A DNA stretch of 64,000 nucleotides from an uncultured Burkholderiales bacterium (GTDB taxonomy: Bacteria > Actinomycetota > Acidimicrobiia > IMCC26256 > JAGPDB01), in assembly GCA_964391505.1 (NCBI GenBank), contig CAYMMG010000005.1, positions 19,676-83,675 on the forward strand. The letters are read 5' to 3'. Below, one piece after another: positions 21,649 through 42,365 of this stretch (positions within the stretch are counted from its first letter, which is position 1; every line of letters starts with the position of its first letter). The notes below the pieces were generated by a model. That model was given only the letters and a program-made list of their open reading frames with translations, made no database searches and was not told where the DNA came from. Both the position numbers and the translations under genes were made by a program.

Positions 21649-21774
21649 TTAGGGTTGTTCCTGGTGCTAGGAGTAGCGACTAAGCAGCAGGTGCGGCCCT
21701 CCTACCTAATTTAGGGTTGTACCTTGGAAACGAGATGATTACGGCGAGGTACAATACAAGGTGCGACCCTCCCC
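21649..21774 (-). repeat. family A intergenic element: two adjacent hairpin-only units in inverted orientation (21649-21702, 21710-21774)
   Basis: TTAGGGTTGTTCCTGG..CAGGTGCGGCCCTCC and TTTAGGGTTGTACCTTGG..CAAGGTGCGACCCTCCCC. These are reverse complements of the GGGAGGGCCGCACC...GGAACGACCCTAAA core seen elsewhere. Confidence 0.85.
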
Positions 21775-26598: not shown

Positions 26599-29301
26599 GT
26601 GGCAATTCTTAAAAAGGTCCTCAGTGTTGGGGAAGGCAAAAAACTTAAGCGACTTCAAGCCCTTGTTCCTCTCGTCGCGTCCTTCGAAGACTCGATGAAG
26701 CAGAAATCGGATGAGCAACTTCGAGGTAAAACCGTACAATTTCGCCAAAGGCTTGAAGCCGGTGAGACTCTGGATGATCTTCTCCCAGAAGCATTTGCGA
26801 CAGTGCGTGAAGCCGCCACACGAGTCTTAGGTCAACGTCATTATGACGTCCAGATTATGGGTGGGGCAGCGCTTCACTATGGCTGGGTCGCAGAAATGAA
26901 GACAGGTGAAGGTAAAACGCTTGTTTCGACACTTGCCGCATATCTCAATGCGCTTGCAGGTAAAGGCGTACACATCGTTACTGTTAACGATTACTTGGCT
27001 CGACGTGACGCACTTTGGATGGGTCGCGTTCATGAATTTTTGGGGCTCACAATCGGAATCGTTCTCCCTGACATCGAAGATCCTGAACTCAAAGCGCAGG
27101 CATACGCATGCGACATTACATACGGAACAAATAATGAATTCGGTTTTGATTACCTGCGAGACAATATGGCGGTTCGTAAAAACGAACAAGCTCAAAGAGG
27201 ACATTTTTTTACCATTGTTGACGAAGTTGACTCCATCCTTATTGACGAAGCGCGTACTCCTCTGATCATTTCAGGTCCCGCAACCGAATCAAACGATCTT
27301 TACCAACAATTTGCTCGCATCGTCAAAGGTCTTGTTCCAGAACGCGATTATGAAGTTGATGAAGCGAAATTTACGGTTTCACCCACTGAAGAAGGAATCG
27401 AGCGCGTACAGCAGGCGCTCGGTATCGAAAATCTTTATGAGCATGTTCATCAAAACTTTGTTCACCAGCTGAATACCGCAATTAAAGCAAAAGAGCTGTA
27501 CAAAAAAGGTGTGGACTACATCATTCAAGATGGTGAAATAAAGATTGTTGATGAATTTACTGGTCGTATCCTCGAAGGTCGACGTTGGAGTGATGGAATT
27601 CACCAAGCAGTTGAAGCACGAGAGAACGTAGCGATCCAAGAAGAAAATCAAACACTCGCAACGGTTACGCTTCAAAACTATTTCAAACAGTACGAGAAGA
27701 TTTCAGGAATGACGGGTACAGGTTTAACCGAAGCCGGTGAGTTCATGCACACTTACGGACTCGAAGTAGTTTCGATTCCCACCCATCGCCCTGCAGCGCG
27801 AATAGATAATGCAGACTTTATATATAAGACCGAAGCAGGTAAATTCAACGCTGTAGTTAATGATCTTATTGAACGTCACCGAAAAGGTCAACCTGTACTT
27901 GTGGGTACTGTCTCGGTCGAGAAATCGGAACGTCTATCTCGTATGTTGACCAAAGTTGGAGTGAAACATCATGTCCTGAACGCAAAGGAGCACACGAAGG
28001 AAGGTCCTGTAATTGCTCAGGCTGGCCGCGTTGGCTCTGTAACTGTTGCGACTAACATGGCAGGTCGTGGTGTGGACATCCTGTTGGGTGGAAACCCCGA
28101 GGGTCTTGCTGCACAAGAATTAGCTGCAGAGGGTAAAACCCCGGAGTCGGCACCTGAAGAGTTCGCTGCACTTCAAGCGAAAATTGCTGATGCTTGCGCA
28201 CGAGAAGGCCAAGAGGTCGTGTCACTGGGCGGGCTTTACGTGTTGGGCACAGAACGCCACGAATCTCGACGAATCGATAATCAGTTGCGCGGACGTGCTG
28301 GTCGTCAAGGGGATCCAGGCGAAAGCCGCTTCTACTTATCTCTAGAAGATGATCTGATGCGATTATTTGCAAATAATGCAATGAACTGGGTGATGGGTCG
28401 AGCTTTCCCCGAAGATGTTCCTCTCGAAGCCAAAATGGTCAGCAAAGCTATTGAGCGTGCTCAGCAAACTGTTGAGGGTCGTAACTTCGAAATCCGAAAA
28501 GATGTTCTCAAATACGACGAGGTTATGAGTGAACAACGCAAAATTATCTATCGTCGTCGTCAGCAAATTCTTGATGGAGAAAATCTCGACGAAGAAGCAC
28601 TGCGCATTATTCAGGACGTTGTACTTCGCTTGACTTCGCTCTACTGCGATGGCGACTATCCAGAAACATGGAATATTGAATCGCTAATGAAAGATGCTTC
28701 AAATTATTATCCAATTTCGTTATCGACCGAAAAAATTTCTTCTTGTGACTCAGTTGGAGCGCTTCAAGAGATGATGTCAGCTGATGCACTTGATAGCTAC
28801 GCGAAGAAAGAACTCGATCTTGGGTCTGAGCGTCTTCGTGATATCGAACGCCGTGTCATGCTTGATGTGATTGATCAACATTGGCGAGAACATCTTTACG
28901 AAATGGACTATTTGCGTGAAGGTATTAATTTGCGAGCCATGGGTCAAAGGGATCCTGTGACGGAATGGCAACGTGAAGGTTTTGATATGTTCCAGGCCAT
29001 GATGGAGTCGATTGAAAATGACTTCGTTCAGTTTGTGATGAAACTTGAAGTAGTTCGTGAAGATCCTTCACAACGACGACCAGAGAAGCTCAGTTATTTT
29101 GCACCAGATAATCCAGTTCAGGGTTCTGCAAGTTTTCAAGGAATGAGCGATCCCGCTATTGCTGCTGCGGGTCAAGGACTTGTGCACAACTCGGGCGAGC
29201 CGGCTACTCAAACCCCGGTTCAGGTCGAACAAATGCCAGGACGAAACGAACTATGTTTTTGTGGCAGTGGGAAAAAATATAAACATTGTCACGGTCAATA
29301 A
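26599..29301 (+). CDS. secA: preprotein translocase ATPase SecA
   Basis: 900 aa, GTG start, with MKTGEGKT Walker A, DEVDSILIDEARTPLIISG and the C-terminal zinc motif CFCGSGKKYKHCHG. Confidence 0.97.
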   Translation: MAILKKVLSVGEGKKLKRLQALVPLVASFEDSMKQKSDEQLRGKTVQFRQRLEAGETLDDLLPEAFATVREAATRVLGQRHYDVQIMGGAALHYGWVAEMKTGEGKTLVSTLAAYLNALAGKGVHIVTVNDYLARRDALWMGRVHEFLGLTIGIVLPDIEDPELKAQAYACDITYGTNNEFGFDYLRDNMAVRKNEQAQRGHFFTIVDEVDSILIDEARTPLIISGPATESNDLYQQFARIVKGLVPERDYEVDEAKFTVSPTEEGIERVQQALGIENLYEHVHQNFVHQLNTAIKAKELYKKGVDYIIQDGEIKIVDEFTGRILEGRRWSDGIHQAVEARENVAIQEENQTLATVTLQNYFKQYEKISGMTGTGLTEAGEFMHTYGLEVVSIPTHRPAARIDNADFIYKTEAGKFNAVVNDLIERHRKGQPVLVGTVSVEKSERLSRMLTKVGVKHHVLNAKEHTKEGPVIAQAGRVGSVTVATNMAGRGVDILLGGNPEGLAAQELAAEGKTPESAPEEFAALQAKIADACAREGQEVVSLGGLYVLGTERHESRRIDNQLRGRAGRQGDPGESRFYLSLEDDLMRLFANNAMNWVMGRAFPEDVPLEAKMVSKAIERAQQTVEGRNFEIRKDVLKYDEVMSEQRKIIYRRRQQILDGENLDEEALRIIQDVVLRLTSLYCDGDYPETWNIESLMKDASNYYPISLSTEKISSCDSVGALQEMMSADALDSYAKKELDLGSERLRDIERRVMLDVIDQHWREHLYEMDYLREGINLRAMGQRDPVTEWQREGFDMFQAMMESIENDFVQFVMKLEVVREDPSQRRPEKLSYFAPDNPVQGSASFQGMSDPAIAAAGQGLVHNSGEPATQTPVQVEQMPGRNELCFCGSGKKYKHCHGQ

Positions 29302-29343
29302 GTTCATGGGCGTGTTTTCTCACGCGCGCAAAGGATAGTTATC

Positions 29344-30471
29344 ATGCGTGACTTCTCGGTACAGATGAAAGATCTCGCGCGTCGGGTTCAAGAAGCAAGC
29401 ATTTATTTACAAGTTGATGATGCGCGATTAGAAGTAGCCGAGCTTGAAACTCAGGCGGCGGATCCGACCTTGTGGGACGATCAGGATCGTGCTCGAAGTG
29501 TAACAAGTCGGCTTTCTTCTCTCAAGAGTGATATTGACGTGGTAGAGCAGCTGCAAGTAAGTCTTAGTGATATGCAGACCTTATATGAATTGATGCGTGA
29601 AGCAGGTGACGAATCAATTGAGAGTGAGATCGATCAGCTTTCGGGAGCGCTTACGAAACAGCTCGATCAGCTTGAACTCCGTTCTCTTTTTACCGGCGAA
29701 TATGATGAACGTGACGCGATCTGTTCCATTAACTCAGGGGCGGGCGGCACCGAGGCATGTGATTGGGCCGAGATGCTTTTTCGAATGTATTCGCGTTGGT
29801 GTGAACGCAACGAATTCACGCTTGTCGTCACGGATCTATCTCCGGGCGAAGAAGTAGGAATATCATCGGTATCGTTTACTGTTAAGGGTCGTCATGCATA
29901 TGGATTGTTGACAGGCGAGAAAGGAGTGCATCGGCTTGTGCGGATTTCACCCTTCGATTCACAATCGCGTCGTCATACGTCGTTTGCTTCTTTTGAAGTT
30001 GTTCCTGCACTTGAGGTCGAAGAACTTCCTGAAATAGATGAATCCGAACTTCGTGTCGATACCTATCGTGCTTCAGGTGCAGGGGGTCAGCATGTCAACA
30101 AAACAGACTCAGCGATACGATTGACACACCTTCCCACAGGAATTGTTGTTCAGTGTCAGAATGAGCGAAGTCAACTCCAGAACCGAGCACAAGCAATGGC
30201 GATCCTCAGCGCACGTTTGGCGGAGAAACAAAGGCTTGATCGGGCAGCTGAACTTGCCAAGATCTCAGGCAACAAAATGGAAGTGGGATGGGGGAGCCAA
30301 ATAAGAAGCTATGTCCTCGCTCCCTATCAGCTTGTTCGTGATGAACGAACAAAAATGATTGACGGACACGAAAAACCGATTTATGAAACAGGGAATGTCG
30401 TTAATGTTCTCGACGGTGATATCGAAAATTTTCTTTCAGCTTTCTTACAATGGCGCAGATCACAATCGTAG
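29344..30471 (+). CDS. prfB: peptide chain release factor 2 (single uninterrupted frame)
   Basis: 375 aa with the SPF tripeptide (RISPFDS) and GGQ (SGAGGQHVN). There is no in-frame TGA at the usual frameshift position (IYLQVDD). Confidence 0.95.
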   Translation: MRDFSVQMKDLARRVQEASIYLQVDDARLEVAELETQAADPTLWDDQDRARSVTSRLSSLKSDIDVVEQLQVSLSDMQTLYELMREAGDESIESEIDQLSGALTKQLDQLELRSLFTGEYDERDAICSINSGAGGTEACDWAEMLFRMYSRWCERNEFTLVVTDLSPGEEVGISSVSFTVKGRHAYGLLTGEKGVHRLVRISPFDSQSRRHTSFASFEVVPALEVEELPEIDESELRVDTYRASGAGGQHVNKTDSAIRLTHLPTGIVVQCQNERSQLQNRAQAMAILSARLAEKQRLDRAAELAKISGNKMEVGWGSQIRSYVLAPYQLVRDERTKMIDGHEKPIYETGNVVNVLDGDIENFLSAFLQWRRSQS

Positions 30472-30480
30472 GTTCCAGAT

Positions 30481-30521
30481 TAAGTGCGAGGTCCGTCCTC
30501 ACTAAGTGCGAGGTCCGTCCT
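30481..30521 (+). repeat. 22-bp tandem repeat x2 (TAAGTGCGAGGTCCGTCCT)
   Basis: Exact 19-nt copies lie at 30481-30499 and 30503-30521. The core GAGGTCCGTCCT(C) is complementary to the core of the downstream 58-bp repeats. Confidence 0.9.
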
Positions 30522-30547
30522 TAAAAAATGCGATCGTCTAGTTGAAC

Positions 30548-30720
30548 ACTATTTTCAAGAGGACGGACCTCATCGCCAATGCATCGAGACCGCGGCGTAG
30601 CGATCACTACTTTCAAGAGGACGGACCTCATCGCCAAAGCATCGAGACCGCGGGAAAGCGCTCTCTTAGTTCAAAAGGACGTGTCTCACCCTTCTCAGGG
30701 CGGAATCCTAAAGAAACTAG
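30548..30720 (+). repeat. ~58-bp tandem repeat x3 (third copy degenerate)
   Basis: ACTAYTTTCAAGAGGACGGACCTCATCGCCAAWGCATCGAGACCGCGG occurs at 30548 and 30606. A degenerate TTCAAAAGGACGTGTCTCACCC lies at about 30670. Confidence 0.85.
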
Positions 30721-30728
30721 GTGTGAGT

Positions 30729-30820
30729 CAACTGAACGAACTGCTGCTACTTCGTTGTTTTGGGGGAGGGTCGCACCTGCGCTTAGTCGCTACGCTCCTG
30801 GCGCAGGAACAACCCTAAAT
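30729..30820 (+). repeat. family A intergenic element, full unit
   Basis: CAACTGAACGAACTGCTGCTACTTCGTTGTTTTGGGGGAGGGTCGCACCTG...CAGGAACAACCCTAAAT. Confidence 0.9.
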
Positions 30821-30868
30821 GCGAAGAAATCTCTTCTCACCCTCGCACTTTGGTAACCTGTTATTTCC

Positions 30869-31576
30869 ATGATTCGCTTCGAAAACGTTACAAAACACTA
30901 CGGGCAAAATGTCGTTGCTCTTAGAGAAATCAATATCGAGATACAAAAAGGCGAGTTTTGTTTTCTTGTGGGACCTTCAGGTTCGGGTAAATCGTCCTTC
31001 TTGCGGCTCTTGTTGCGTGAAGAAGTTGCGAGCACAGGTCGAGTTCTTGTTGCGGGTCGAGATATTGGCCGACTTTCTCAGTGGAAAGTACCTCAGCTTC
31101 GACGAAATATTGGCTGTATTTTCCAGGACTTTAAACTGCTACCCAACCGTACGGTTTACGAAAATGTAGCTTTTGCTCAAGAAGTAATCGGTCGTCCCCG
31201 GGACGTCATCCGTGCTCAAGTTCCTCAAATTCTCGAACTTGTTGGACTCGCAGAAAAGCAGAACCGTTTTCCTAACGAACTCTCCGGTGGAGAGCAACAA
31301 CGTGTTTCTATTGCTCGTGCTTTTGTGAATCGTCCACTTATTCTTCTTGCTGATGAGCCAACAGGAAACCTCGACCCTGCAACAACAGTGGGTATTATGC
31401 GATTGCTCGATCGAATTAATAAGACAGGAACAACAGTTGTCATGGCTACGCATGACGTCCGTATCGTCAACGAAATGCGTCGACGAGTTATAGAACTCGA
31501 ACATGGAAACTTGGTACGTGACCAACAACGCGGTGTATATGGTTCTGCACAACAGGTAGAAGGGGAACAAGCATAA
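30869..31576 (+). CDS. ftsE: cell division ATP-binding protein FtsE
   Basis: 235 aa with GPSGSGKS Walker A, LSGGEQQR signature and [11 protein letters not shown] Walker B. Confidence 0.95.
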
Positions 31577-32463
31577 TGCTTTCTCGCTTTTTCTACTTTC
31601 TCCGTGAAACTTTTATTTCGCTCCGTCGAAATATCTCAATGACTATTGCTGCTATTTTGACAATTTTCGTTACCCTCTCTTTGGTGGGTGTTGCAATGCT
31701 TGTGTTCTTCTGGAACGCTCAAGGCACAGCAACTGTTGAAAAAGCCGTTCGTTTTGAAGTCTTCATGCTCCCCAATGCACAGCAAGAACAGATTGATGAT
31801 GTTAGAAAAGAATTAGAGCAAGATAAAAAAGACGAAAAAGTTTCCAAGATCACGTTTTATTCAAAAGAAGAAGCATTTGATTTCTTTAAAAAATCATTTA
31901 AAGATGAAAAAGATCTTATTAAGTCGATTACCAAAGATGATCTTCCCGTTAGTTTCTTGGTAGCCCCACAAAAGCCTGATAAAAAGTTTGTACAGGATCT
32001 GATTGATACCTATAGCTCAACCCCTGGCGTGGACAAAGTGACGTTTGCAAACTTTGAAGATGACATTCAACGTGCCCGAGTTATTAATCGGACTCTTGCG
32101 GTGTTTGCGGCTGTGCTTTTGATCGCCAGCTGTGTGCTTGTTTTTAACACGGTGCGGTTAGCGGTTTACGCTCGTCGACGAGAAATAGAAATCATGAAGC
32201 TGGTTGGCGCAAGCAACTGGTTTGTTCAAGTTCCTTTTATGGCAGAAGGCGCAGTGCAGGGACTCGTAGGTGGTGTTTTTGCATCTGTAAGCGTGTTCGT
32301 ATTTCAGAATGCTGTTCTCGATAAACAATTCTCGACTGGATTTAAGGGGTTTGCTGTTTCGGCGACTCAATTATGGGGCACTGCCATCATGGTTGTTCTT
32401 CTTGGGATTGCAATCGGATTCATATCTTCCTATGTGGGTCTCAAGAGATATCTCGATGTTTAA
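31576..32463 (+). CDS. ftsX: cell division permease FtsX
   Basis: 295 aa. It overlaps the ftsE stop and has 4 TM segments with a large periplasmic loop. [11 protein letters not shown] motif. Confidence 0.85.
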
Positions 32464-32488
32464 TAAGGCCTGACCTTATTTCTCATAT

Positions 32489-32551
32489 GTCATCGCGAGA
32501 GAGCCGACCGAAGGGAGTCCTGAGCTTGCGAAGGATCTCGAGGGATCTCCG
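32489..32551 (+). repeat. family B intergenic element (long form)
   Basis: GTCATCGCGAGAGAGCCGACCGAAGGGAGTCCTGAGCTTGCGAAGGATCTCGAGGGATCTCCG. It is the near-exact reverse complement of 42848-42918. Confidence 0.8.
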
Positions 32552-32585
32552 TTGTGGATGTACGAGGCTAATCACAAGCCCCGCA

Positions 32586-32750
32586 ACAACTGAGCGGACT
32601 GCTGCAACTACTTTTCTTTTTGGGGGAGGGTCCGACCTGTTCGCTGTAGATCCCGATACAACTGTACGAACTGCTGCGGATTCGTTGGTCTTGGGGGAGG
32701 GCCGCACCTTGTAAAACCGCTTTGCGGTTGTCCAAGGAACGACCCTAAAT
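32586..32750 (+). repeat. family A intergenic element, dimer (truncated unit 32586-32657 + full unit 32658-32750)
   Basis: Both units carry ACAACTG.ACG.ACTGCTGC and TTGGGGGAGGG. The second ends GGCCGCACCTTGTAAAACCGCTTTGCGGTTGTCCAAGGAACGACCCTAAAT. Confidence 0.9.
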
Positions 32751-32824
32751 TGAGATGGTTTTTCGCATTGTGCGCCTGTGTGCGTAATAGTCCTTTCTTC
32801 CGGCTCTTTACTTTTCGTCGTTTC

Positions 32825-34072
32825 ATGACGAAGAATAGTCTTCGGGGAAAGGGAACGATCGCGTTGGCAAGAACACCTGCAAAGATATTGGGACTCGCAT
32901 TGTGTCTTTCTTTAATGCTGCCCATATCACATGCATTTGCAGTAACGAATTATTTTTCGCGTCCAACGGCTGACCCACGCATCGACAAACTTAAAGGTGA
33001 TTTGGAATACGTTTCTAAACAGGAAGCAGCGGAAGTCCAGAAGTATATAGCGCTCAAGGCTGAGAGCCAGAAAGCGGAAGCAGATCTCGCTTCGATCAAT
33101 AAAAAAATTCGTGATGCTGAAGCGCGACAGAAGTCCGCTCAAGATCAAGCAGCAAGCGCGCGAGCGGAGTTTGCAGCTGCGCAAGAACGATATGATCTAG
33201 CGGTTAAGGACTCCGAGACTGCCCATGATCGACGCTCAAAAGCAATTGTTCGTCTCTATCAAGAATCTTCAGATCCTGATGCAATTCCATCTATGTTGAG
33301 TGCAGGTCCCGAAGAACGTCAAGACATCATTCGTAAAACGTCACTGATGGAAAATTTCAATGACAAACAAACTGCTGTCATCTCTGATGCGGATATAAAA
33401 GCAAGTGAAGCAATACAAGAGCGAATGGCACATGAAGATGCGCGCATACGTGCTGAGGCAGCAGAAAAAATTGCGGCTGACGAAGAAATTTCTCTAGGAC
33501 CTTTGCATGAACAATACGCTGCTGCACAAAAGAAGGCGAAGGCAAATGAAACAGCCGAAAAGGCAATCGTTGATTCGTTGAAATCGAAGAAGGCTGGTTA
33601 TAACAGGCAGATTGCTCAGATAACTGCTGAATCGAATGCGCTTGCGGCACAGATCCGCAAAAAACAAAATAGCAATGTAGTTGTGGCTCCAGGAAAAATG
33701 CGACGGCCAGTGGGTGCGGCAATCAATTCGCCTTATGGTTATCGAGTACACCCGATTTATGGTGATTCACGTCTCCACGCGGGTGTTGACTTTAATGCGA
33801 GTTATGGCACCGCCATCGCAGCTGCGAAAGCCGGCAAAGTTATTTATGCCAGCCAGATGAGCGGATACGGAAACGTCATTATCATTGATCACGGTGGAGG
33901 AATCTCTACTCTTTACGCACACCAAAGTTCATTTGCAGTAAGTCTTGGCGCAGTGGTGAGTCAAGGTAAAACGATAGGTTATGTGGGTGCCACCGGAAAT
34001 GTTACAGGGCCACATCTTCACTTTGAAGTACGCGTTAACGGAGCGCCTGTTAACCCAATGCCGTATTTCTAG
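32825..34072 (+). CDS. coiled-coil M23 family metallopeptidase (EnvC/PcsB-like, FtsEX-associated candidate)
   Basis: The C-terminus carries HAGVDF...GNVIIIDHGGGISTLYAH...GPHLHFEV M23 motifs. A long coiled-coil precedes it, with a signal-like N-terminus. ATG 32825 is preferred over TTG 32750, which lies inside a repeat. Confidence 0.8.
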   Translation: MTKNSLRGKGTIALARTPAKILGLALCLSLMLPISHAFAVTNYFSRPTADPRIDKLKGDLEYVSKQEAAEVQKYIALKAESQKAEADLASINKKIRDAEARQKSAQDQAASARAEFAAAQERYDLAVKDSETAHDRRSKAIVRLYQESSDPDAIPSMLSAGPEERQDIIRKTSLMENFNDKQTAVISDADIKASEAIQERMAHEDARIRAEAAEKIAADEEISLGPLHEQYAAAQKKAKANETAEKAIVDSLKSKKAGYNRQIAQITAESNALAAQIRKKQNSNVVVAPGKMRRPVGAAINSPYGYRVHPIYGDSRLHAGVDFNASYGTAIAAAKAGKVIYASQMSGYGNVIIIDHGGGISTLYAHQSSFAVSLGAVVSQGKTIGYVGATGNVTGPHLHFEVRVNGAPVNPMPYF

Positions 34073-36957: not shown

Positions 36958-37052
36958 TCTTGTCACCGCTTTTGTGAATTATTTTTTTAAGCGCTAAAAT
37001 TCACGGGCTGTATTCGTAAGTTTAAGAAATCGTATTCCAAGGATGTGAAGCG

Positions 37053-38267
37053 TTGTCAAGGAACGGAAAAGTTAGCGATAGAGACGTCGCTGAAGAAATA
37101 CTGAGACGCCAAGCCTTAGGCCATAATGCAAGAGATATCGTTCGCGATACTGCACAACTTGCCAGACGTACACTTGCACAAATCGAAGTCAGCAAGGCAA
37201 CCCAGCCGCTATTGGAATTCTGGTTACGCAATACGCCGTGGATCGATGTTTCGGGTCGTTGGGATTTACAGTTTGTCGATGGCAAACTTCCTAAAGGTCA
37301 AGTCCTGGATTTGGGGGCCGGTACTACTTTCATGACGCATCTTTATGCAGCAACAAATCCGCGTGCAGTAATAACTGCTTGCGATTCGGATAGAAGAAAT
37401 GGAGGTAAGGAACGTGTCGAGCTTTTTCAAAAAGATCCTGAGCTTCGTGAACGAATGGTCTCTGAAGCTCAGAGGCGTATTTGTGCCATAGACATTGCCT
37501 TCGATATTGGAACCAAAGTATCTGGCGGGAAAAGATCTCCCAATGTCTCAGCGAATTTTGTTCGACCAGCTCGTCCCTTAGAAAACTATCTCGATGCGCA
37601 ATGTCCTAATATTCCCGTTCTCGATGCTTCCTTTGAGGGTTTAATAGCTATGAGAGTATTTGACTATCTCGATGACCCAATCGGTTTCTTCCAAGAAGCC
37701 CAAAGAATTTTGGATACTCGTCGGGGAAAGATTCTCATGAATGTATATAACCCTTTTAACTTGGGCCCATGGGGGATGATGACGGCAATGATGTCATCAT
37801 CTATGAAGTCAATGGAAGTAGGTGCGGCAACTTTACAATCGGGAAAAGTACAAAAAAATCTTTTTGCCGAATGTCTCCAGAGATTCCTTGTTATAGCTGC
37901 TTCTCACGGATTTGAAATGACCAGATTGGCACATGACGGCTATGCCCCTTCTGAGTTCGATGTACATAGCGAGCCTTCAAAAATGCGAGCTTGGGAAAAG
38001 TGTGAAGCACTATTTCCTGGACGGATCAATGAGGGCGGAATCAAACAACAGCTTCCCGAAATAGCTCCAGAGACACTTTATTTTGAATTCACACGTAAGG
38101 AACCAGATAAAATTTTTGTTCCCACTCCCGAAGCTTGGCAACCTTTCGTCGATGGAACGAATGCCCCAGAGCGGATTGTGCAACGGGGGCTTGGCGACGC
38201 GCTCCGTATCCAATATTTACCTTCGCTTTCACGTAAACCTATTGCTCTAGATGGGGCAATGCGGTAG
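37053..38267 (+). CDS. class I SAM-dependent methyltransferase-fold protein with unknown N- and C-terminal extensions (paralog A)
   Basis: 404 aa. A TTG start is forced by the stop at 37047-37049. Motif I is VLDLGAGTT. The post-motif region FDYLDDPIGFFQEAQRILDTRRGKILMNVYNP is typical of small-molecule/RNA methyltransferases. Confidence 0.6.
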   Translation: MSRNGKVSDRDVAEEILRRQALGHNARDIVRDTAQLARRTLAQIEVSKATQPLLEFWLRNTPWIDVSGRWDLQFVDGKLPKGQVLDLGAGTTFMTHLYAATNPRAVITACDSDRRNGGKERVELFQKDPELRERMVSEAQRRICAIDIAFDIGTKVSGGKRSPNVSANFVRPARPLENYLDAQCPNIPVLDASFEGLIAMRVFDYLDDPIGFFQEAQRILDTRRGKILMNVYNPFNLGPWGMMTAMMSSSMKSMEVGAATLQSGKVQKNLFAECLQRFLVIAASHGFEMTRLAHDGYAPSEFDVHSEPSKMRAWEKCEALFPGRINEGGIKQQLPEIAPETLYFEFTRKEPDKIFVPTPEAWQPFVDGTNAPERIVQRGLGDALRIQYLPSLSRKPIALDGAMR

Positions 38268-39388
38268 TGGCTCAAAACGGTCGACTCGACTCCATTTTTC
38301 ATTCGGGTGATGAAAACTTCATTAATGAAGTAACTGATGGACTCGCTGAAATAATTGAAAGAGAACGATTCGTCAAGCAGTGGCTAGAAACAGGTGCTTG
38401 GGTGGAAGTCACGTCACCATTGAACTTACTTTTTACCAGGGGACGCATTCCTTCGGGTCGCATTCTCGATGTGGGAGCAGGAACGGGCATGATGACACAC
38501 ATTTTGGCCGATGCTAATCCGCGATCGGTTTTTTATGGGTGCGATAAGAGCGCTATCAGTAATGCCATCGAAGAAATGTTTAGAAAGTATCCAGAATGCT
38601 TGACGCGCATTATGTCTACTGTCCGACATCAAATCGGCACTATTCATGAACTGAATGTTCCTGTAAATGGAACATCCTCTCGCACGGCGACGCAGAAGCC
38701 TTATCAGATCTCTTCTCGGCTACTCGGTGGATGGATCGATGCATATTCTCCCAACATTCCTTCTGAGAATGGTTTTTTTCGTGCAGTCACATCTTTTCAG
38801 GCATTCCACGACATGGACGCGCCGGATGCATTCTTCTCAGAGGTGAGTCGACTTACAACACCAAACGGAATGCTCTTCATGAGTATTATGAATCCTTATG
38901 CAACAGAAATGTTGGATTCGCTTTCACATCTTTTAGGGCATGCATTTCAACCGGACGATATTGGTGTATCAACATTGGATTCGCAGCGGTGTCAGGACGA
39001 TATCCTTGCTCAATACCTTCAAAGGATTCTTGTTCTCGCAGCAGTAAATGGCTTTGAAGTAAAGCGTATTGCACGGTTTCCCTTTGGTAGACAGACCTTT
39101 CCTTTTACGCCAGAAGAAAATGCTTCTTCCCGAAATAAATTTAATGAGCGTTTTGCTGATCGTCTTGGTCAGAATGGATATCAACATCCAGATATTGATG
39201 AATGTCCACTGGCGTTCTTTTTGGAATTTAAGAAAAAAGACCCATCAAAAATATTTGTTCCCGAAATTGATACATGGATTGGTTACATGGATGCATCTGT
39301 TCCTGAACGACCAGTGGAAAAAGGTCAAAGCCGAATTCGCATTGAAGTTCTTCCCCAGCCGTCACGGAGCGCAGGGCGATCGAGATAA
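38267..39388 (+). CDS. class I SAM-dependent methyltransferase-fold protein (paralog B of the preceding gene)
   Basis: 373 aa. The GTG start overlaps the upstream TAG by 1 nt (TAGTG). Motif I is ILDVGAGTG. It is collinear with paralog A at roughly 30% identity by eye and shares the C-terminal KIFVP...W...D...PER motif. Confidence 0.6.
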   Translation: MAQNGRLDSIFHSGDENFINEVTDGLAEIIERERFVKQWLETGAWVEVTSPLNLLFTRGRIPSGRILDVGAGTGMMTHILADANPRSVFYGCDKSAISNAIEEMFRKYPECLTRIMSTVRHQIGTIHELNVPVNGTSSRTATQKPYQISSRLLGGWIDAYSPNIPSENGFFRAVTSFQAFHDMDAPDAFFSEVSRLTTPNGMLFMSIMNPYATEMLDSLSHLLGHAFQPDDIGVSTLDSQRCQDDILAQYLQRILVLAAVNGFEVKRIARFPFGRQTFPFTPEENASSRNKFNERFADRLGQNGYQHPDIDECPLAFFLEFKKKDPSKIFVPEIDTWIGYMDASVPERPVEKGQSRIRIEVLPQPSRSAGRSR

Positions 39389-39471
39389 TTTCTTCGCGTT
39401 GGTAGGTTTTGTTAAGGCCGATCTCTGAGTTAGACAGTTTTTCTGTCGTAGCTCCCTGGTACCTTAATGAC

Positions 39472-39969
39472 ATGGAACGAGTTTGTACTGCGTGCAAAAA
39501 ACGGTTCAGACCTTCATCAGGGCAATTACACTGCCCATCTTGTCGAGAAGAGCTTGCCAAAATGCCTTGCGAAAAGTGCGGCCTGTTGCGCCAGAAGGAT
39601 AGTAAACAATGTGCTGTATGTTGGGGGAAAGAACAATCTGGGAAAAAGAACGGTAACTGGAAAGGCGGTAGAAGAAACCATGGTGGCGGATATATCCAGA
39701 TCAAAGCGCTTTGGCATCCCCGGAGTGTAAAGAATGATGGATATGTATTCGAGCACATTATTGTCATGGAAAAAATGATTGGTAGATATTTATTACCTAA
39801 CGAAAATGTGCACCATAAAAATAGCATCAGAGATGACAATCGTCCCGAAAACCTAGAACTCTGGGCAAGAGGCCAGCCAAATGGAGCGAGAGTCGCAGAC
39901 CTTTATGAATGGGCGATACATATAGTTGATAGATATGGGGATCTGTTCACACCTCCAACTGCTGACTGA
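39472..39969 (+). CDS. HNH endonuclease with N-terminal Cys-rich zinc-ribbon region
   Basis: CTACKK..CPSC and CEKCG..CAVC precede YVFEHIIVMEKMIGRYLLPNENVHHKNSIRDDNRPENLELW (HNH core). ATG 39472 is preferred over TTG 39409. Confidence 0.75.
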   Translation: MERVCTACKKRFRPSSGQLHCPSCREELAKMPCEKCGLLRQKDSKQCAVCWGKEQSGKKNGNWKGGRRNHGGGYIQIKALWHPRSVKNDGYVFEHIIVMEKMIGRYLLPNENVHHKNSIRDDNRPENLELWARGQPNGARVADLYEWAIHIVDRYGDLFTPPTAD

Positions 39970-39985
39970 CGAATCAATCAACACT

Positions 39986-40347
39986 TGGAGGTGGGGGGTT
40001 TCGAAACCCCCGTCCTTTAGACCCATTCGTAGGCCTTCTCCGAGCGCAGTTACCGGTAAGGTTTCGAAACATTTGCCGCCAGTAACTCTGACAAAGTTTC
40101 TAGTCAACTAAATATGTCCTCGTAAGTAGCTAACGCCTTACGGAGCAAGTACCGTGATTGAACCTGATGCGGCGACGGTACCTACCGCTTCAGGCACTAC
40201 TTAAAATTAATTAAGCAGCTAGTGCGTAGACTGAGCTTTCGCTCTCATCGTTTGCATTTATTGTTTTGCACAGACTCTTTAACGACAGTCTGCAACGTCG
40301 GCTCGCTTCTCCTACGGCCAAGTACAAAGTCGAAACCATGCACCCCC
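39986..40347 (-). ncRNA. ssrA: transfer-messenger RNA (tmRNA)
   Basis: The 5' end is GGGGGUGCAUGGUUUCGAC. The 3' end is GGACGGGGGUUUCGAAACCCCCCACCUCC-A. A 7-bp acceptor stem carries G3:U (Ala identity). An internal tag ORF is present. CCA is not encoded. A TACAAT -10-like box lies at 40357-40362 (minus strand). Confidence 0.9.
40210..40254 (-). other. tmRNA tag-peptide reading frame ANDESESSVYALAA + TAA
   Basis: Resume codon GCA at 40254-40252. 14 codons end in the canonical ALAA, followed by UAA. Confidence 0.8.
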
Positions 40348-40423
40348 GAGACTTATATTGTACAACGGCCGTCAAGGGGTTTTCATCCCTAATCTGACAT
40401 AAAGCAATAGCTACTATTGATTC

Positions 40424-41188
40424 ATGCCTACAGAGAGCGAAGAGACCGAGAAACAAAAACGCGATCTGTTGCATTACACCAAGCAAATGCAACATGAACT
40501 TGAAAAGAACTCCAAATGGGTTATTAAAAACCTTGATATGGTCAATCGGCAAGGTCGAATCGCCGCCGGGTCACTTCTCTTTCTCGCAGCCTTTGTTCAA
40601 CTTATACTTCCTAGTCATTTAGTTACAGGATCACGATTCTTTTTACCGCCTATTGAGATCGCCCTCGGTTTGATCTTTATTATCTGGCAAAAGCTTTTCG
40701 ATCAGCATCATCTATGGTTGCGTCATATAACCATCAGCTTTACTCTTGTGATCTCGTTCGGTAATGCAGTGTCCACTGGATTTCTTATCGACAAAATTAT
40801 TCAAGATTCGGAACTGACAGCTATCCATTTACTCATGGCCGGAGGAGTGGTGTGGTTTACAAACGTGGTGACCTTTGCGCTGCTCTACTGGGAATTCGAC
40901 CGCGGAGGTCCACTTGCTCGGATTGTAAATGGTTGGCAGCACGCAGATTTCTATTTTCCTCAAATGGATATTGATTATTCGGGTGAAGCAACCAAAGCAA
41001 TTGTGCGCCCCGGTTGGGAACCTCACTACTTCGACTATTTATATTTGGCGACCACCAACGCGACAGCATTTTCTCCCACCGACGTGATGCCGCTTACGTG
41101 GAAGGCGAAAGCTTTGATGGGTACTCAATCGGTTGTCTCGCTGGTGACGGTTACACTTGTCGCAGCACGTGCCGTGAACATTCTTTAA
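40424..41188 (+). CDS. DUF1345-like integral membrane protein
   Basis: 254 aa with about 5 TM segments and the LLYWEFDRGGP and ATTNATAFSPTDV motifs recalled for DUF1345. The exact start is uncertain. Confidence 0.55.
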   Translation: MPTESEETEKQKRDLLHYTKQMQHELEKNSKWVIKNLDMVNRQGRIAAGSLLFLAAFVQLILPSHLVTGSRFFLPPIEIALGLIFIIWQKLFDQHHLWLRHITISFTLVISFGNAVSTGFLIDKIIQDSELTAIHLLMAGGVVWFTNVVTFALLYWEFDRGGPLARIVNGWQHADFYFPQMDIDYSGEATKAIVRPGWEPHYFDYLYLATTNATAFSPTDVMPLTWKAKALMGTQSVVSLVTVTLVAARAVNIL

Positions 41189-41348
41189 TGGCAGGGCGGG
41201 TCGCTGTAAAGACTTTGCAGCGTAAGATCTCGTTCACGAAAAATGAGGTTAACTGCGCAATACTGTAGAATCTTCTAAAATCGACATTAGTGTTGCATGG
41301 GCGAAAGGTGCCAGGTCGCGGTGTCAATGGCAAGACGAGGATGATGAG

Positions 41349-41882
41349 TTGACGCAGAATACACCCAAGGTGCGGTCAACCCTCGTTCAACTTCCCGACT
41401 CCGTCCTTATCTGTCTCGACAAAATACACTTAGCTCAAGGCGGCCTTCGAAGCGATATAGTCCTCAGAGCTATTTTGACAACTGTTATTGAGTTGTCAAC
41501 CGTCGAAGAAGACGCTCGCGAATATTACGAGAGGCGATCACGTTACGGCGAGATTGTTGATCATGAATGGGATAACCCACACTCTGAACAACCGTGCAGA
41601 GCAAGACAGAAGGATATCCTTATTGAGGCAGGATTAGATACGGAATTACAACGGTTAACGCAAATTGAAATCAGTGTTCCCGTATCACTGCTCGATCGTG
41701 TGGATGCGCTTTGTTCTACCTTAGGGCTTTATCGCAATGAATTCTTTAGGTATTCGATAATTGACATGGTGGTAGATGAAGTACTGGAAATAATTAAAGG
41801 CGAAATCGAAATCGTTGTACCCGATGACGTATCAGTGCTACCCCAACCGCCAACTCAACCTCCACCGACACCCGAACTATAA
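41349..41882 (+). CDS. hypothetical protein with two ribbon-helix-helix-like modules and a Pro-rich tail
   Basis: 177 aa. Two similar segments (LVQLPDSVLICLDKIHLAQGGLRSDIVLRAIL and ISVPVSLLDRVDALCSTLGLYRNEFFRYSII) resemble CopG/RHH. The C-terminus is PQPPTQPPPTPEL. Confidence 0.45.
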   Translation: MTQNTPKVRSTLVQLPDSVLICLDKIHLAQGGLRSDIVLRAILTTVIELSTVEEDAREYYERRSRYGEIVDHEWDNPHSEQPCRARQKDILIEAGLDTELQRLTQIEISVPVSLLDRVDALCSTLGLYRNEFFRYSIIDMVVDEVLEIIKGEIEIVVPDDVSVLPQPPTQPPPTPEL

Positions 41883-42365
41883 CTATTTGTGTCGTTCTTT
41901 GAAGGCGCGTTGGATATCGCGATCCGCGTCGCGTTTCTTTAAGTCTTGACGCTTGTCGTAATTGCGTTTCCCTTTGCCGACGCCCAAAGTCAGTTTGGCC
42001 ATACCGCGCACAAAGTCGAGGCGCAAAGGAATCAAGGTAACACCACGTTCTTCCGTAGCCTTCGCCATTTCAGCGATTTCTTTTTTATGCGCTAACAATA
42101 TGCGGGGTCGATCAGGATCGATTTCCCCGCGTGAAAACTTGTACGGATTAATGTGCATGCCATAAATAGTTAATTCGCCGCCATCCGTACGAGCGAAAGC
42201 TTCATCAATGGAGACATGCTTTTCTCTCAGGGATTTCACCTCTGGACCCATCAGGCTGATTCCACATTGATAGGTTTCAAGAATCTCAAAGTCGCGACGA
42301 GCTTTGCGATTGGTCGCAATAGGACCATCGCCTCGGCGTTCAGCGGAATCGGGTTGAGATGACAT
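41883..42365 (-). CDS. smpB: SsrA-binding protein SmpB
   Basis: 160 aa with ATNRKARRDFEILETYQCGISL and LLAHKKEI motifs and a basic C-terminal tail. Confidence 0.95.
   Translation of the reverse strand: MSSQPDSAERRGDGPIATNRKARRDFEILETYQCGISLMGPEVKSLREKHVSIDEAFARTDGGELTIYGMHINPYKFSRGEIDPDRPRILLAHKKEIAEMAKATEERGVTLIPLRLDFVRGMAKLTLGVGKGKRNYDKRQDLKKRDADRDIQRAFKERHK

Follow-up and report, generated by a model that had tools for sequence, protein, structure and literature searches.

A nearly orphan tandem pair of predicted class I methyltransferase paralogs near ssrA in an uncultured Acidimicrobiia genome

Trm61-Trm6, which forms 1-methyladenosine at position 58 of tRNA (m1A58), and METTL3-METTL14, which forms N6-methyladenosine in mRNA (m6A), are paralogous heteromers with one non-catalytic subunit, and Trm6/61 is descended from the homotetrameric bacterial TrmI. 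CmoA/CmoB, which act in the formation of uridine 5-oxyacetic acid (cmo5U) in tRNA, and GSMT/SDMT, the glycine-sarcosine and sarcosine-dimethylglycine N-methyltransferases of glycine betaine synthesis, are adjacent paralogs that act in sequence. The METTL family has been reviewed (PMC11514484). Here we describe two adjacent genes, A and B, in a 64,000-nt stretch of DNA from an uncultured bacterium of the Acidimicrobiia (contig CAYMMG010000005.1 of assembly GCA_964391505.1, positions 19,676 to 83,675), hereafter the window, within which all gene coordinates are numbered. A and B encode diverged paralogs with the motifs of S-adenosylmethionine (SAM)-dependent methyltransferases. The pair is a nearly orphan form of a very common kind of enzyme, and no new kind of system.

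Like the subunits of Trm6/Trm61 and METTL3/METTL14, A and B are two diverged methyltransferase-fold paralogs, in this case encoded together, of which B is conserved and A evolves faster; as with Trm6/61, duplication of a homomeric ancestor is a plausible origin. Unlike those systems, to which they show no homology, A and B have a bacterial host, a canonical SAM site in the A protein of the window, and a substrate that is probably not RNA, so that the resemblance would be one of possible working and not of family membership. With CmoA/CmoB and GSMT/SDMT they have in common the arrangement as tandem class I paralogs in one predicted operon with diverged substrate pockets. Neither protein reaches a Pfam or NCBIfam threshold for CmoA, CmoB or the betaine-pathway enzymes, however, and the SDMT structure (2o57) is one of many generic cores that they match. 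The members of both of these sequentially acting pairs need an intact SAM (or carboxy-SAM, Cx-SAM) site, unlike A in L006, the related locus described below. The same seven-strand core is found in small-molecule enzymes of the Methyltransf_11/23/25 type (the RebM/AtmM sugar O-methyltransferases, MitM, UbiG, TM1389, YcgJ, JHAMT and SDMT), and motif I (LD.G.G), the acidic residue of beta2 and the region 'DA..PN.P / sF..v.s...f.h' align with the Methyltransf_11 profile. No match to those generic enzymes extends over the additions of the A/B family, which are N-terminal helices of ~55 aa, a helical insert of ~45-60 aa between beta2 and beta3, a helical beta6-beta7 insert and a hairpin tail of ~48 aa, and the generic enzymes are encoded by single genes, whereas A and B form a predicted coupled pair.

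An earlier note, made from the letters of the window, had described two adjacent open reading frames (ORFs; 404 and 373 aa) with a 1-nt TAGTG overlap, and both the coordinates and the junction are as it gave them (Table 1). The junction reads ...CGG TAG TG G..., with the stop codon TAG at 38265-38267 and the start codon GTG at 38267-38269, so that one base is common to the stop of A and the start of B. This overlap is predicted to couple translation of A to that of B. BLASTP aligned the two proteins collinearly across 339 aa with 31% identity, 9 gap positions and an E-value of 2e-58. Such similarity is well beyond chance, and A and B are paralogs, in agreement with the ~30% identity that had been judged by eye. 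The start of A at TTG, also proposed in the note, is supported as well: from the stop codon at 37023 up to the TTG at 37053 the frame offers no alternative start, and both the TTG and the AAGGA in front of it are kept in L006. The ends of the shared region had been drawn too generously. Of the ~80-aa N-terminal extension thought to be common to both proteins, the part from a W-x-x-x-x-W block, ~25 aa ahead of motif I, is indeed shared; further upstream, the first 38-56 aa of A and B have little beyond M-x-x-N-G in common and are deleted in the A ortholog. Of the ~100-aa common C-terminal region, a tail of ~48 aa is specific to the family, and about half belongs to the core fold (beta6, a helical insert and beta7, which carries [FL]EF).

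Table 1. Positions of the A/B gene pair, its signals and its neighbours in the window
Feature	Position	Strand	Basis or remarks
Gene A, predicted class I SAM-methyltransferase paralog, fast-evolving	37053-38267	+	TTG start, 404 aa, isoelectric point (pI) 8.2
Gene B, predicted class I SAM-methyltransferase paralog, conserved, presumably the catalytic copy	38267-39388	+	GTG start, 373 aa
TAGTG stop/start overlap, 1 nt	38265-38269	+	Read from the sequence
Shine-Dalgarno AAGGA, 8 nt 5' of the TTG of A	37040-37044	+	Read from the sequence; identical in L006
Predicted sigma-70-like promoter: -35 TTGTGA, 17-nt spacer, -10 TAAAAT	36972-37000	+	Consensus scan
Perfect 7-bp inverted repeat GTGAATT-N17-AATTCAC, across -35 and -10; candidate operator	36974-37004	.	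Unique in the window
NADP-binding oxidoreductase gene, F420_oxidored-type, 216 aa	36126-36776	+	Pfam PF03807, E 4.9e-12
HNH endonuclease gene, HNH_3, 20 nt downstream of B	39409-39969		phrog_20891, E 7e-38
ssrA (transfer-messenger RNA, tmRNA)	39986-40347	-	

SAM motif I is present in both ORFs as the note had read it, VLDLGAGTT in A and ILDVGAGTG, with the full GxGxG, in B. The motif of A keeps GxG and has Thr in place of the third Gly, as does P0005, a distant member of the family described below. All five family sequences have an Asp at the end of beta2 (ACD, GCD or PMD; D93 in B), the residue that contacts the SAM ribose, and motif III reads LDAQCPNIP in A and IDAYSPNIP in B. Pfam matches to both proteins are to generic class I methyltransferase domains only. 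For B, five of these exceeded their gathering scores (score/gathering in bits: Methyltransf_23, 35.9/27; Methyltransf_12, 34.7/30; Methyltransf_11, 34.5/21.2; Methyltransf_25, 31.7/27; Methyltransf_31, 30.7/27), and for A Methyltransf_11 alone did so (24.7/21.2). The Pfam matches and the sequence matches in the Protein Data Bank (PDB), the latter to enzymes of the Methyltransf_11 type, are split into two blocks, approximately residues 60-100 of B (motif I) and 150-215 (beta3-beta5), which confirms the long insert after motif I noticed earlier and places it, at ~45-60 aa, between beta2 and beta3.

No curated family cut-off was reached in NCBIfam, where the best match was BioC with 29.8 bits against a cut-off of 184.95; the other matches, among the UbiG, UbiE, Tam, RsmA, Erm, PrmC and CmoA/B models, scored lower still and did not extend beyond the motif I region. 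Neither PADLOC, in which an MTase_II match reached an E-value of only 0.021, nor PHROGs yielded a specific match for A or B, and Pfam returned no GCD14/TrmI or MT-A70 domain at E<=1. A regular-expression search for the DNA-methyltransferase motifs [DNS]PP[YFWH], PC[QK] and ENV was negative in A, B, their orthologs and P0005, bearing out for every family member the absence of these motifs claimed for the pair. Orthology to a characterised enzyme, which would have accounted for the pair, was found neither in Pfam, NCBIfam or the PDB nor in homolog searches, and a search of the literature on bacterial heteromeric paralog methyltransferases brought up nothing specific to this family. By fold and motifs, A and B are assigned to the class I (seven-beta-strand, Rossmann-like) SAM-dependent methyltransferase superfamily; as judged from their sequences, they fall outside every curated functional methyltransferase family and, by motif, are not DNA methyltransferases.

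Structural results concern B, for which an AlphaFold2 (AF2) model was built from an alignment of 56 sequences, 52 of them generic methyltransferase matches. The model (predicted local distance difference test, pLDDT, 76; predicted template modelling score, pTM, 0.81) has a canonical seven-strand core with strands at residues 64-69, 87-92, 155-157, 171-177, 197-208, 263-272 and 314-323. Added to this core are N-terminal helices (16-57), two long insert helices (96-127), lid helices (216-244), a helical insert between beta6 and beta7 (282-300) and a C-terminal beta-hairpin (348-361) within the ~48-aa tail. Foldseek found 559 PDB matches at E<=1e-3, of which the top ones were all class I methyltransferases; the best had E-values of 7e-9 to 5e-7, template modelling (TM) scores of 0.5-0.7 by target and 0.3-0.4 by query, and sequence identities of 11-18%. 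Most of the matches are small-molecule or natural-product enzymes (AtmM, SpnF, TM1389, YcgJ, JHAMT, SDMT, RebM, MitM, UbiG, BpumL), and a few are rRNA base methyltransferases (RlmA(I), KamB/NpmA-type). A Foldseek search of BFVD gave the same generic core matches. The resemblance is at the level of the methyltransferase core only, and no counterpart of the extensions of B (N-helices, inserts and C-hairpin) was found by Foldseek among solved structures in the PDB or in BFVD.

In public data the family has almost no other members and is nearly an orphan. When 5.8 billion clusters were searched through an index, A returned only itself and B a single ortholog with 70% identity, P0002; HMMER, run with a profile exhaustively over 1.84 billion representatives, yielded four proteins at E<=1e-10: A, B, P0004 and P0005. 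P0004 corresponds to the ortholog of A in L006, with its start placed at an internal Met; P0005, of 386 aa, is a full-length but distant member with 21-25% identity. Beyond A, B, their orthologs in one Acidimicrobiia metagenome-assembled genome (MAG) and P0005, matches score at the level of generic methyltransferases. An indexed search with a five-sequence profile that included P0005 produced no further members. A profile scan of Joint Genome Institute (JGI) metagenomes gave generic motif-level matches and no true family member, IMG/VR held none, and a scan of the JGI metagenomes for the tmRNA tag of the lineage had 0 hits. Of 15 billion public proteins, about 5 are thus known to belong to the family. 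One related locus, L006, was found by a scan of genome contigs, in the Acidimicrobiia MAG contig DAOLGI010000007, and the B ortholog is labelled at NCBI as 'class I SAM-dependent methyltransferase [Acidimicrobiia bacterium]'. B is intact and is present in this only close relative found, so it is neither an obvious pseudogene nor missing in relatives. The 1-nt overlap of A and B is kept in L006 and L001 with other codons, TAATG. P0005 is unpaired, with an unrelated gene upstream and a convergent pyridoxal phosphate (PLP)-dependent decarboxylase gene on the other side; the family therefore exists unpaired and away from ssrA.

A and B differ markedly in how they are conserved. B has GxGxG, the beta2 Asp and the motif III Asp intact in both genomes, and in the window A too has its GxG, beta2 Asp and motif III Asp all present. 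The L006 copy of A, an intact ORF, reads LDIGANNT and VKATSPNIP at these positions, with GAG changed to GAN in motif I and Asp to Lys in motif III; the Gly replaced in motif I, its second, has a conservation of at least 90% across the 56 aligned methyltransferases. This copy is also shorter, by ~45 residues at the N-terminus and by some of the insert. The cofactor site of A would thus be dispensable in at least one lineage, that of L006. Overall, A retains the fold and the C-terminal tail that it has in common with B; it evolves ~2.5 times faster than B in nonsynonymous divergence (dN), and its second half is 50-75% conserved between orthologs.

Region-by-region identities were calculated for A versus B and for B versus its ortholog. 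They were 53% and 84%, respectively, from motif I to beta2, 48% and 85% from alphaE to beta6, and 40% and 88% in the C-terminal tail, which together with the N-proximal W block (88%) is the best-conserved part of the B orthologs. In the lid after beta5 the values dropped to 14% and 69%, and in the beta6-beta7 insert to 10% and 54%. These two regions usually build the substrate pocket in methyltransferases, and the predicted substrate-cap regions are essentially unrelated between A and B. The pI is 5.7-6.2 for B, the A protein of L006 and P0005, and ~10 for the N-extension and the insert of A.

The pair lies in a divergence hotspot relative to L006. Proteins encoded on either side share 82-99% of their residues with their L006 counterparts (TetR, 99%; DUF3052, 98.6%; SmpB, 97.5%; 1-Cys peroxiredoxin (Prx), 94.6%; M23 peptidase, 90%; oxidoreductase, 82%), the tmRNA gene has 95.9% nucleotide identity, and the orthologs of B and A have amino-acid identities of 69-71% and 43%. 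In a sliding window, nucleotide identity falls from ~90% to 58-77% between ~36,100 and 39,400 and is lowest over A. Nonsynonymous and synonymous (dS) divergence between the window and L006 was estimated by the Nei-Gojobori method. Five of seven flanking genes (range over M23, Prx, DUF3052, TetR, SmpB and JAB) had dN 0.004-0.08 and dS 0.40-0.70; the values were 0.07 and 1.19 for the DUF1345-like gene, 0.12 and 3.9 for the oxidoreductase gene, and 0.19 and 1.2 for B (dN/dS, omega, ~0.16). For A, dN was 0.50 and dS was saturated. Third-position identity between the A alleles is only 36%, and both are uninterrupted ORFs of 335-404 codons. A and B are both under purifying selection. Since the synonymous sites of A and of the oxidoreductase gene are themselves saturated, the divergence is more than relaxed or positive selection in place, and the common ancestor of the segment is much older than that of its surroundings. 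The ~3.3-kb segment with the oxidoreductase gene, A and B is accordingly an old divergent haplotype in a ~90% identical backbone. Its cause, we infer, is most likely recombination that replaced one allele by another, or else a polymorphism kept over a long time; homologous recombination would most likely have brought the oxidoreductase-A-B segment into a backbone of much closer relationship.

Signals 5' of A are better conserved than A itself. The ~95 nt preceding the TTG are ~88% identical to L006, as compared with only ~60% for the coding nucleotides of A, and the predicted promoter sits inside this block. Ahead of the pair stand one conserved promoter-like element and a 5' leader shared by A and B; no signal of similar conservation lies between the two genes. 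The leader matched no riboswitch or other family in Rfam. The inverted repeat across the promoter occurs once in the window (0.09 expected) and is conserved at 6/7 in L006, making it a possible operator for some regulator. A reading of the palindrome as a TetR operator was dropped, since it was not found in the divergent promoter region between the TetR and oxidoreductase genes.

These observations are consistent with a lineage-restricted tandem duplication whose two copies are predicted to be co-transcribed and translationally coupled and are both kept by selection. Our preferred reading, to which we give a probability of roughly 0.4, is that A and B form a heteromer derived from a homomeric ancestor, with B catalytic, A structural or substrate-presenting, and a small molecule or peptide as substrate. 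A homomeric ancestor would have been duplicated and the copies would have become an A-B heteromer, while unpaired members such as P0005 persisted; B would carry out methyl transfer, and A, whose own catalysis would be dispensable, would chiefly lend structure or present the substrate. That the substrate would be a small molecule or peptide, and neither DNA nor RNA, is suggested by the acidic pI values, the fold neighbours, the missing DNA-methyltransferase motifs and a phylogenetic restriction so extreme as to be unlike that of housekeeping RNA modifiers. The earlier note had likewise suggested a heteromer, with one catalytic and one degenerate subunit. The slow evolution and intact site of B fit this proposal, as do the faster evolution of A and its loss of two SAM contacts from an ORF that stays intact in L006; A in the window, with all canonical SAM contacts in place, cannot itself be called degenerate.

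Several points weigh against the heteromer. It is proposed from gene sequences, those of 2 ortholog pairs. The A protein of the window, with its SAM contacts intact, may well be catalytically active, and the changes from Gly to Asn in motif I and Asp to Lys in motif III suggest, without proving it, that SAM binding has been lost in L006. Overlaps of 1 nt are common among operon neighbours generally and not just among genes for subunits of a complex. Fully diverged caps would fit two different substrate specificities equally well, and pI and generic fold neighbours, which include the RlmA(I) and KamB/NpmA types, are weak indicators of substrate class. A more far-reaching form of the heteromer proposal, which we regard as improbable, is a transition, after recent duplication of a homomeric methyltransferase, to an obligate heteromer resembling Trm6/Trm61 or METTL3/METTL14, in which the SAM site of the non-catalytic partner would have been kept in one haplotype and lost in the other; the old haplotypes would persist in closely related genomes under balancing or diversifying selection on the modified molecule, for example a compound or peptide of organism interactions.

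Rather unlikely, and the alternative to be taken most seriously, is that A and B are independently active methyltransferases which are co-expressed, carry out successive or parallel steps on related small molecules or peptides, in the manner of GSMT/SDMT or CmoA/CmoB, and form no obligate complex. The GxG, beta2 Asp and motif III Asp of A in the window agree with this, cap identities as low as those of the lid and the beta6-beta7 insert are what different substrates would lead one to expect, P0005 occurs unpaired, and the fold neighbours are monofunctional small-molecule methyltransferases. An indispensable second step is hard to square, however, with an A gene in L006 that has lost two SAM contacts and still has an intact ORF, and no biosynthetic genes for a pathway substrate are found among the neighbours. 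A role in RNA methylation, on rRNA, tRNA or tmRNA and tied to ssrA and smpB, appears improbable. The pair adjoins ssrA in both genomes, but these are close relatives, which makes the synteny uninformative, and P0005 is not beside ssrA. Weak sub-threshold matches to RsmA/KsgA, RsmC, RlmA and Erm models were seen, and the fold search brought up RlmA(I) and 16S A1408 methyltransferases; the model matches, though, are to the generic SAM-binding core and far under the curated cut-offs. Although A has a basic N-extension and a basic insert, B and P0005 are acidic overall, and about 5 known sequences would be few for an RNA-modification enzyme, a kind that is normally widespread.

It is very improbable that A is a decaying duplicate devoid of function and that only B matters. 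The lower identity and higher dN of A relative to B could be read in this way, as could what A has lost in L006 (N-terminal residues, some of the insert, two SAM contacts) and the single Pfam gathering score that it passed. Yet both alleles are open over 335-404 codons despite saturation, and an unconstrained frame would almost certainly have gained stops or frameshifts; moreover, the start codon, Shine-Dalgarno sequence, promoter and 1-nt overlap are conserved, as is the second half of the protein at 50-75%. The least probable alternative is a DNA-modification or anti-phage module working with the HNH gene, or cargo of an island at ssrA, whose 3' end is a classical integration site. The HNH gene lies close behind B, the locus is a divergence hotspot, and PADLOC gave a weak match of B to mad2 (E 7e-6). 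That match is confined to the generic SAM-binding region, however, and A had no PADLOC match. The HNH gene resembles free-standing phage homing-type HNH_3 genes and was not found in L006 or L001, where A and B persist and ~125 nt of unrelated sequence stand in its position; it would therefore be an incidental insertion and no partner of A/B. There are also no DNA-methyltransferase motifs, no integrase nearby, no duplicate of the ssrA 3' end in the window, no GC anomaly and no IMG/VR members. A role for HNH or ssrA together with the pair is not upheld, given the absence of HNH in relatives and the unrelated context of P0005.

If the heteromer reading is right, the pair would be a rare bacterial methyltransferase with an evolved paralogous non-catalytic partner, and the two natural alleles of A would bracket the loss of cofactor binding, offering a compact system for the origin of pseudoenzyme subunits. 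Were A and B just two ordinary small-molecule methyltransferases, the finding would be routine. On any reading they represent a practically orphan methyltransferase subfamily with three structural additions that lack a solved counterpart, carried on a haplotype of deep ancestry in a close Acidimicrobiia backbone, which bears on the exchange of flexible genes in uncultured Actinomycetota.

Gene order in L006 is that of the window: secA, prfB, ftsE, ftsX, M23 peptidase, 1-Cys peroxiredoxin, DUF3052, TetR, F420_oxidored-type reductase, A and B, continued by ssrA on the opposite strand, the DUF1345-like membrane protein, smpB and the JAB protein. The pair had been placed between a 'family A dimer' and an HNH nuclease next to ssrA. 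The HNH gene and ssrA are where they were said to be; the upstream neighbour is the 216-aa F420_oxidored-type protein. Its gene is separated from A by 275 nt that hold repeat elements and A's own promoter, and a functional link to A/B would be hypothetical. GC content is flat at 0.43-0.50 with no compositional anomaly, and outside the gene the window repeats at most 11 nt of the ssrA 3' end. An ssrA-integrated island was rejected in view of the lack of an att duplicate, of an integrase among the neighbours and of a GC shift.

The order begins with the actinobacterial secA-prfB-ftsE-ftsX block followed by the M23 peptidase gene (26599-34072), and the ssrA/smpB stretch occupies 39986-42365. Seven inserted genes (M23 peptidase, Prx, DUF3052, TetR, oxidoreductase, A and B), together with HNH, divide ftsX from ssrA and smpB, which lie on the opposite strand. 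L006 keeps the final ~45 nt of the HNH ORF (ATGGGGATCTGTTC.CACCTCCAACTGCTGACTGA) and the DNA from there to the ssrA 3' end (window 39405-39985; L006 11128-11300); either the gene was deleted and left this C-terminal remnant, or the insertion recruited pre-existing sequence as its C-terminus. On the other side of ssrA, divergence is raised too in the gene for the DUF1345-like membrane protein (40424-41188), in its 5' half, with 74-77% nucleotide identity over 40400-40850, and both sides of ssrA may be recombination-prone. A 177-aa ORF at 41349-41882 (+), between the DUF1345-like gene and smpB, matches no Pfam family, has no L006 counterpart and is a second strain-specific insertion flanking ssrA/smpB.

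A dispersed intergenic repeat was also noticed, with cores at 21692(-), 21762(-), 26534(+), 30763(+), 32694(+), 35329(+), 36831(+), 36903(+) and 48712(+). The element, ~80-110 nt long, consists of a 5' hairpin module (CGATACAACTGAACGAACTGCTG...TTCGTT), GGGGAGGGCCGCACC, a variable inner hairpin and (C)AGGAACAACCCTAA. Its 16-nt core had 5 matches at <=2 mismatches, against 0.01 expected, and no Rfam match was found for the repeat. A common layout, an outer AGGG/CCCU stem with a CCUG/CAGG or CCUUG/CAAGG stem, was seen in five of the six copies that were folded, with modest z-scores. Repeat copies coincide with insertions and deletions relative to L006, so that copy number differs between close relatives, and two tandem copies lie directly upstream of the promoter of A. 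The repeat may be an element of the repetitive extragenic palindrome (REP) or miniature inverted-repeat transposable element (MITE) kind, or a structured RNA.

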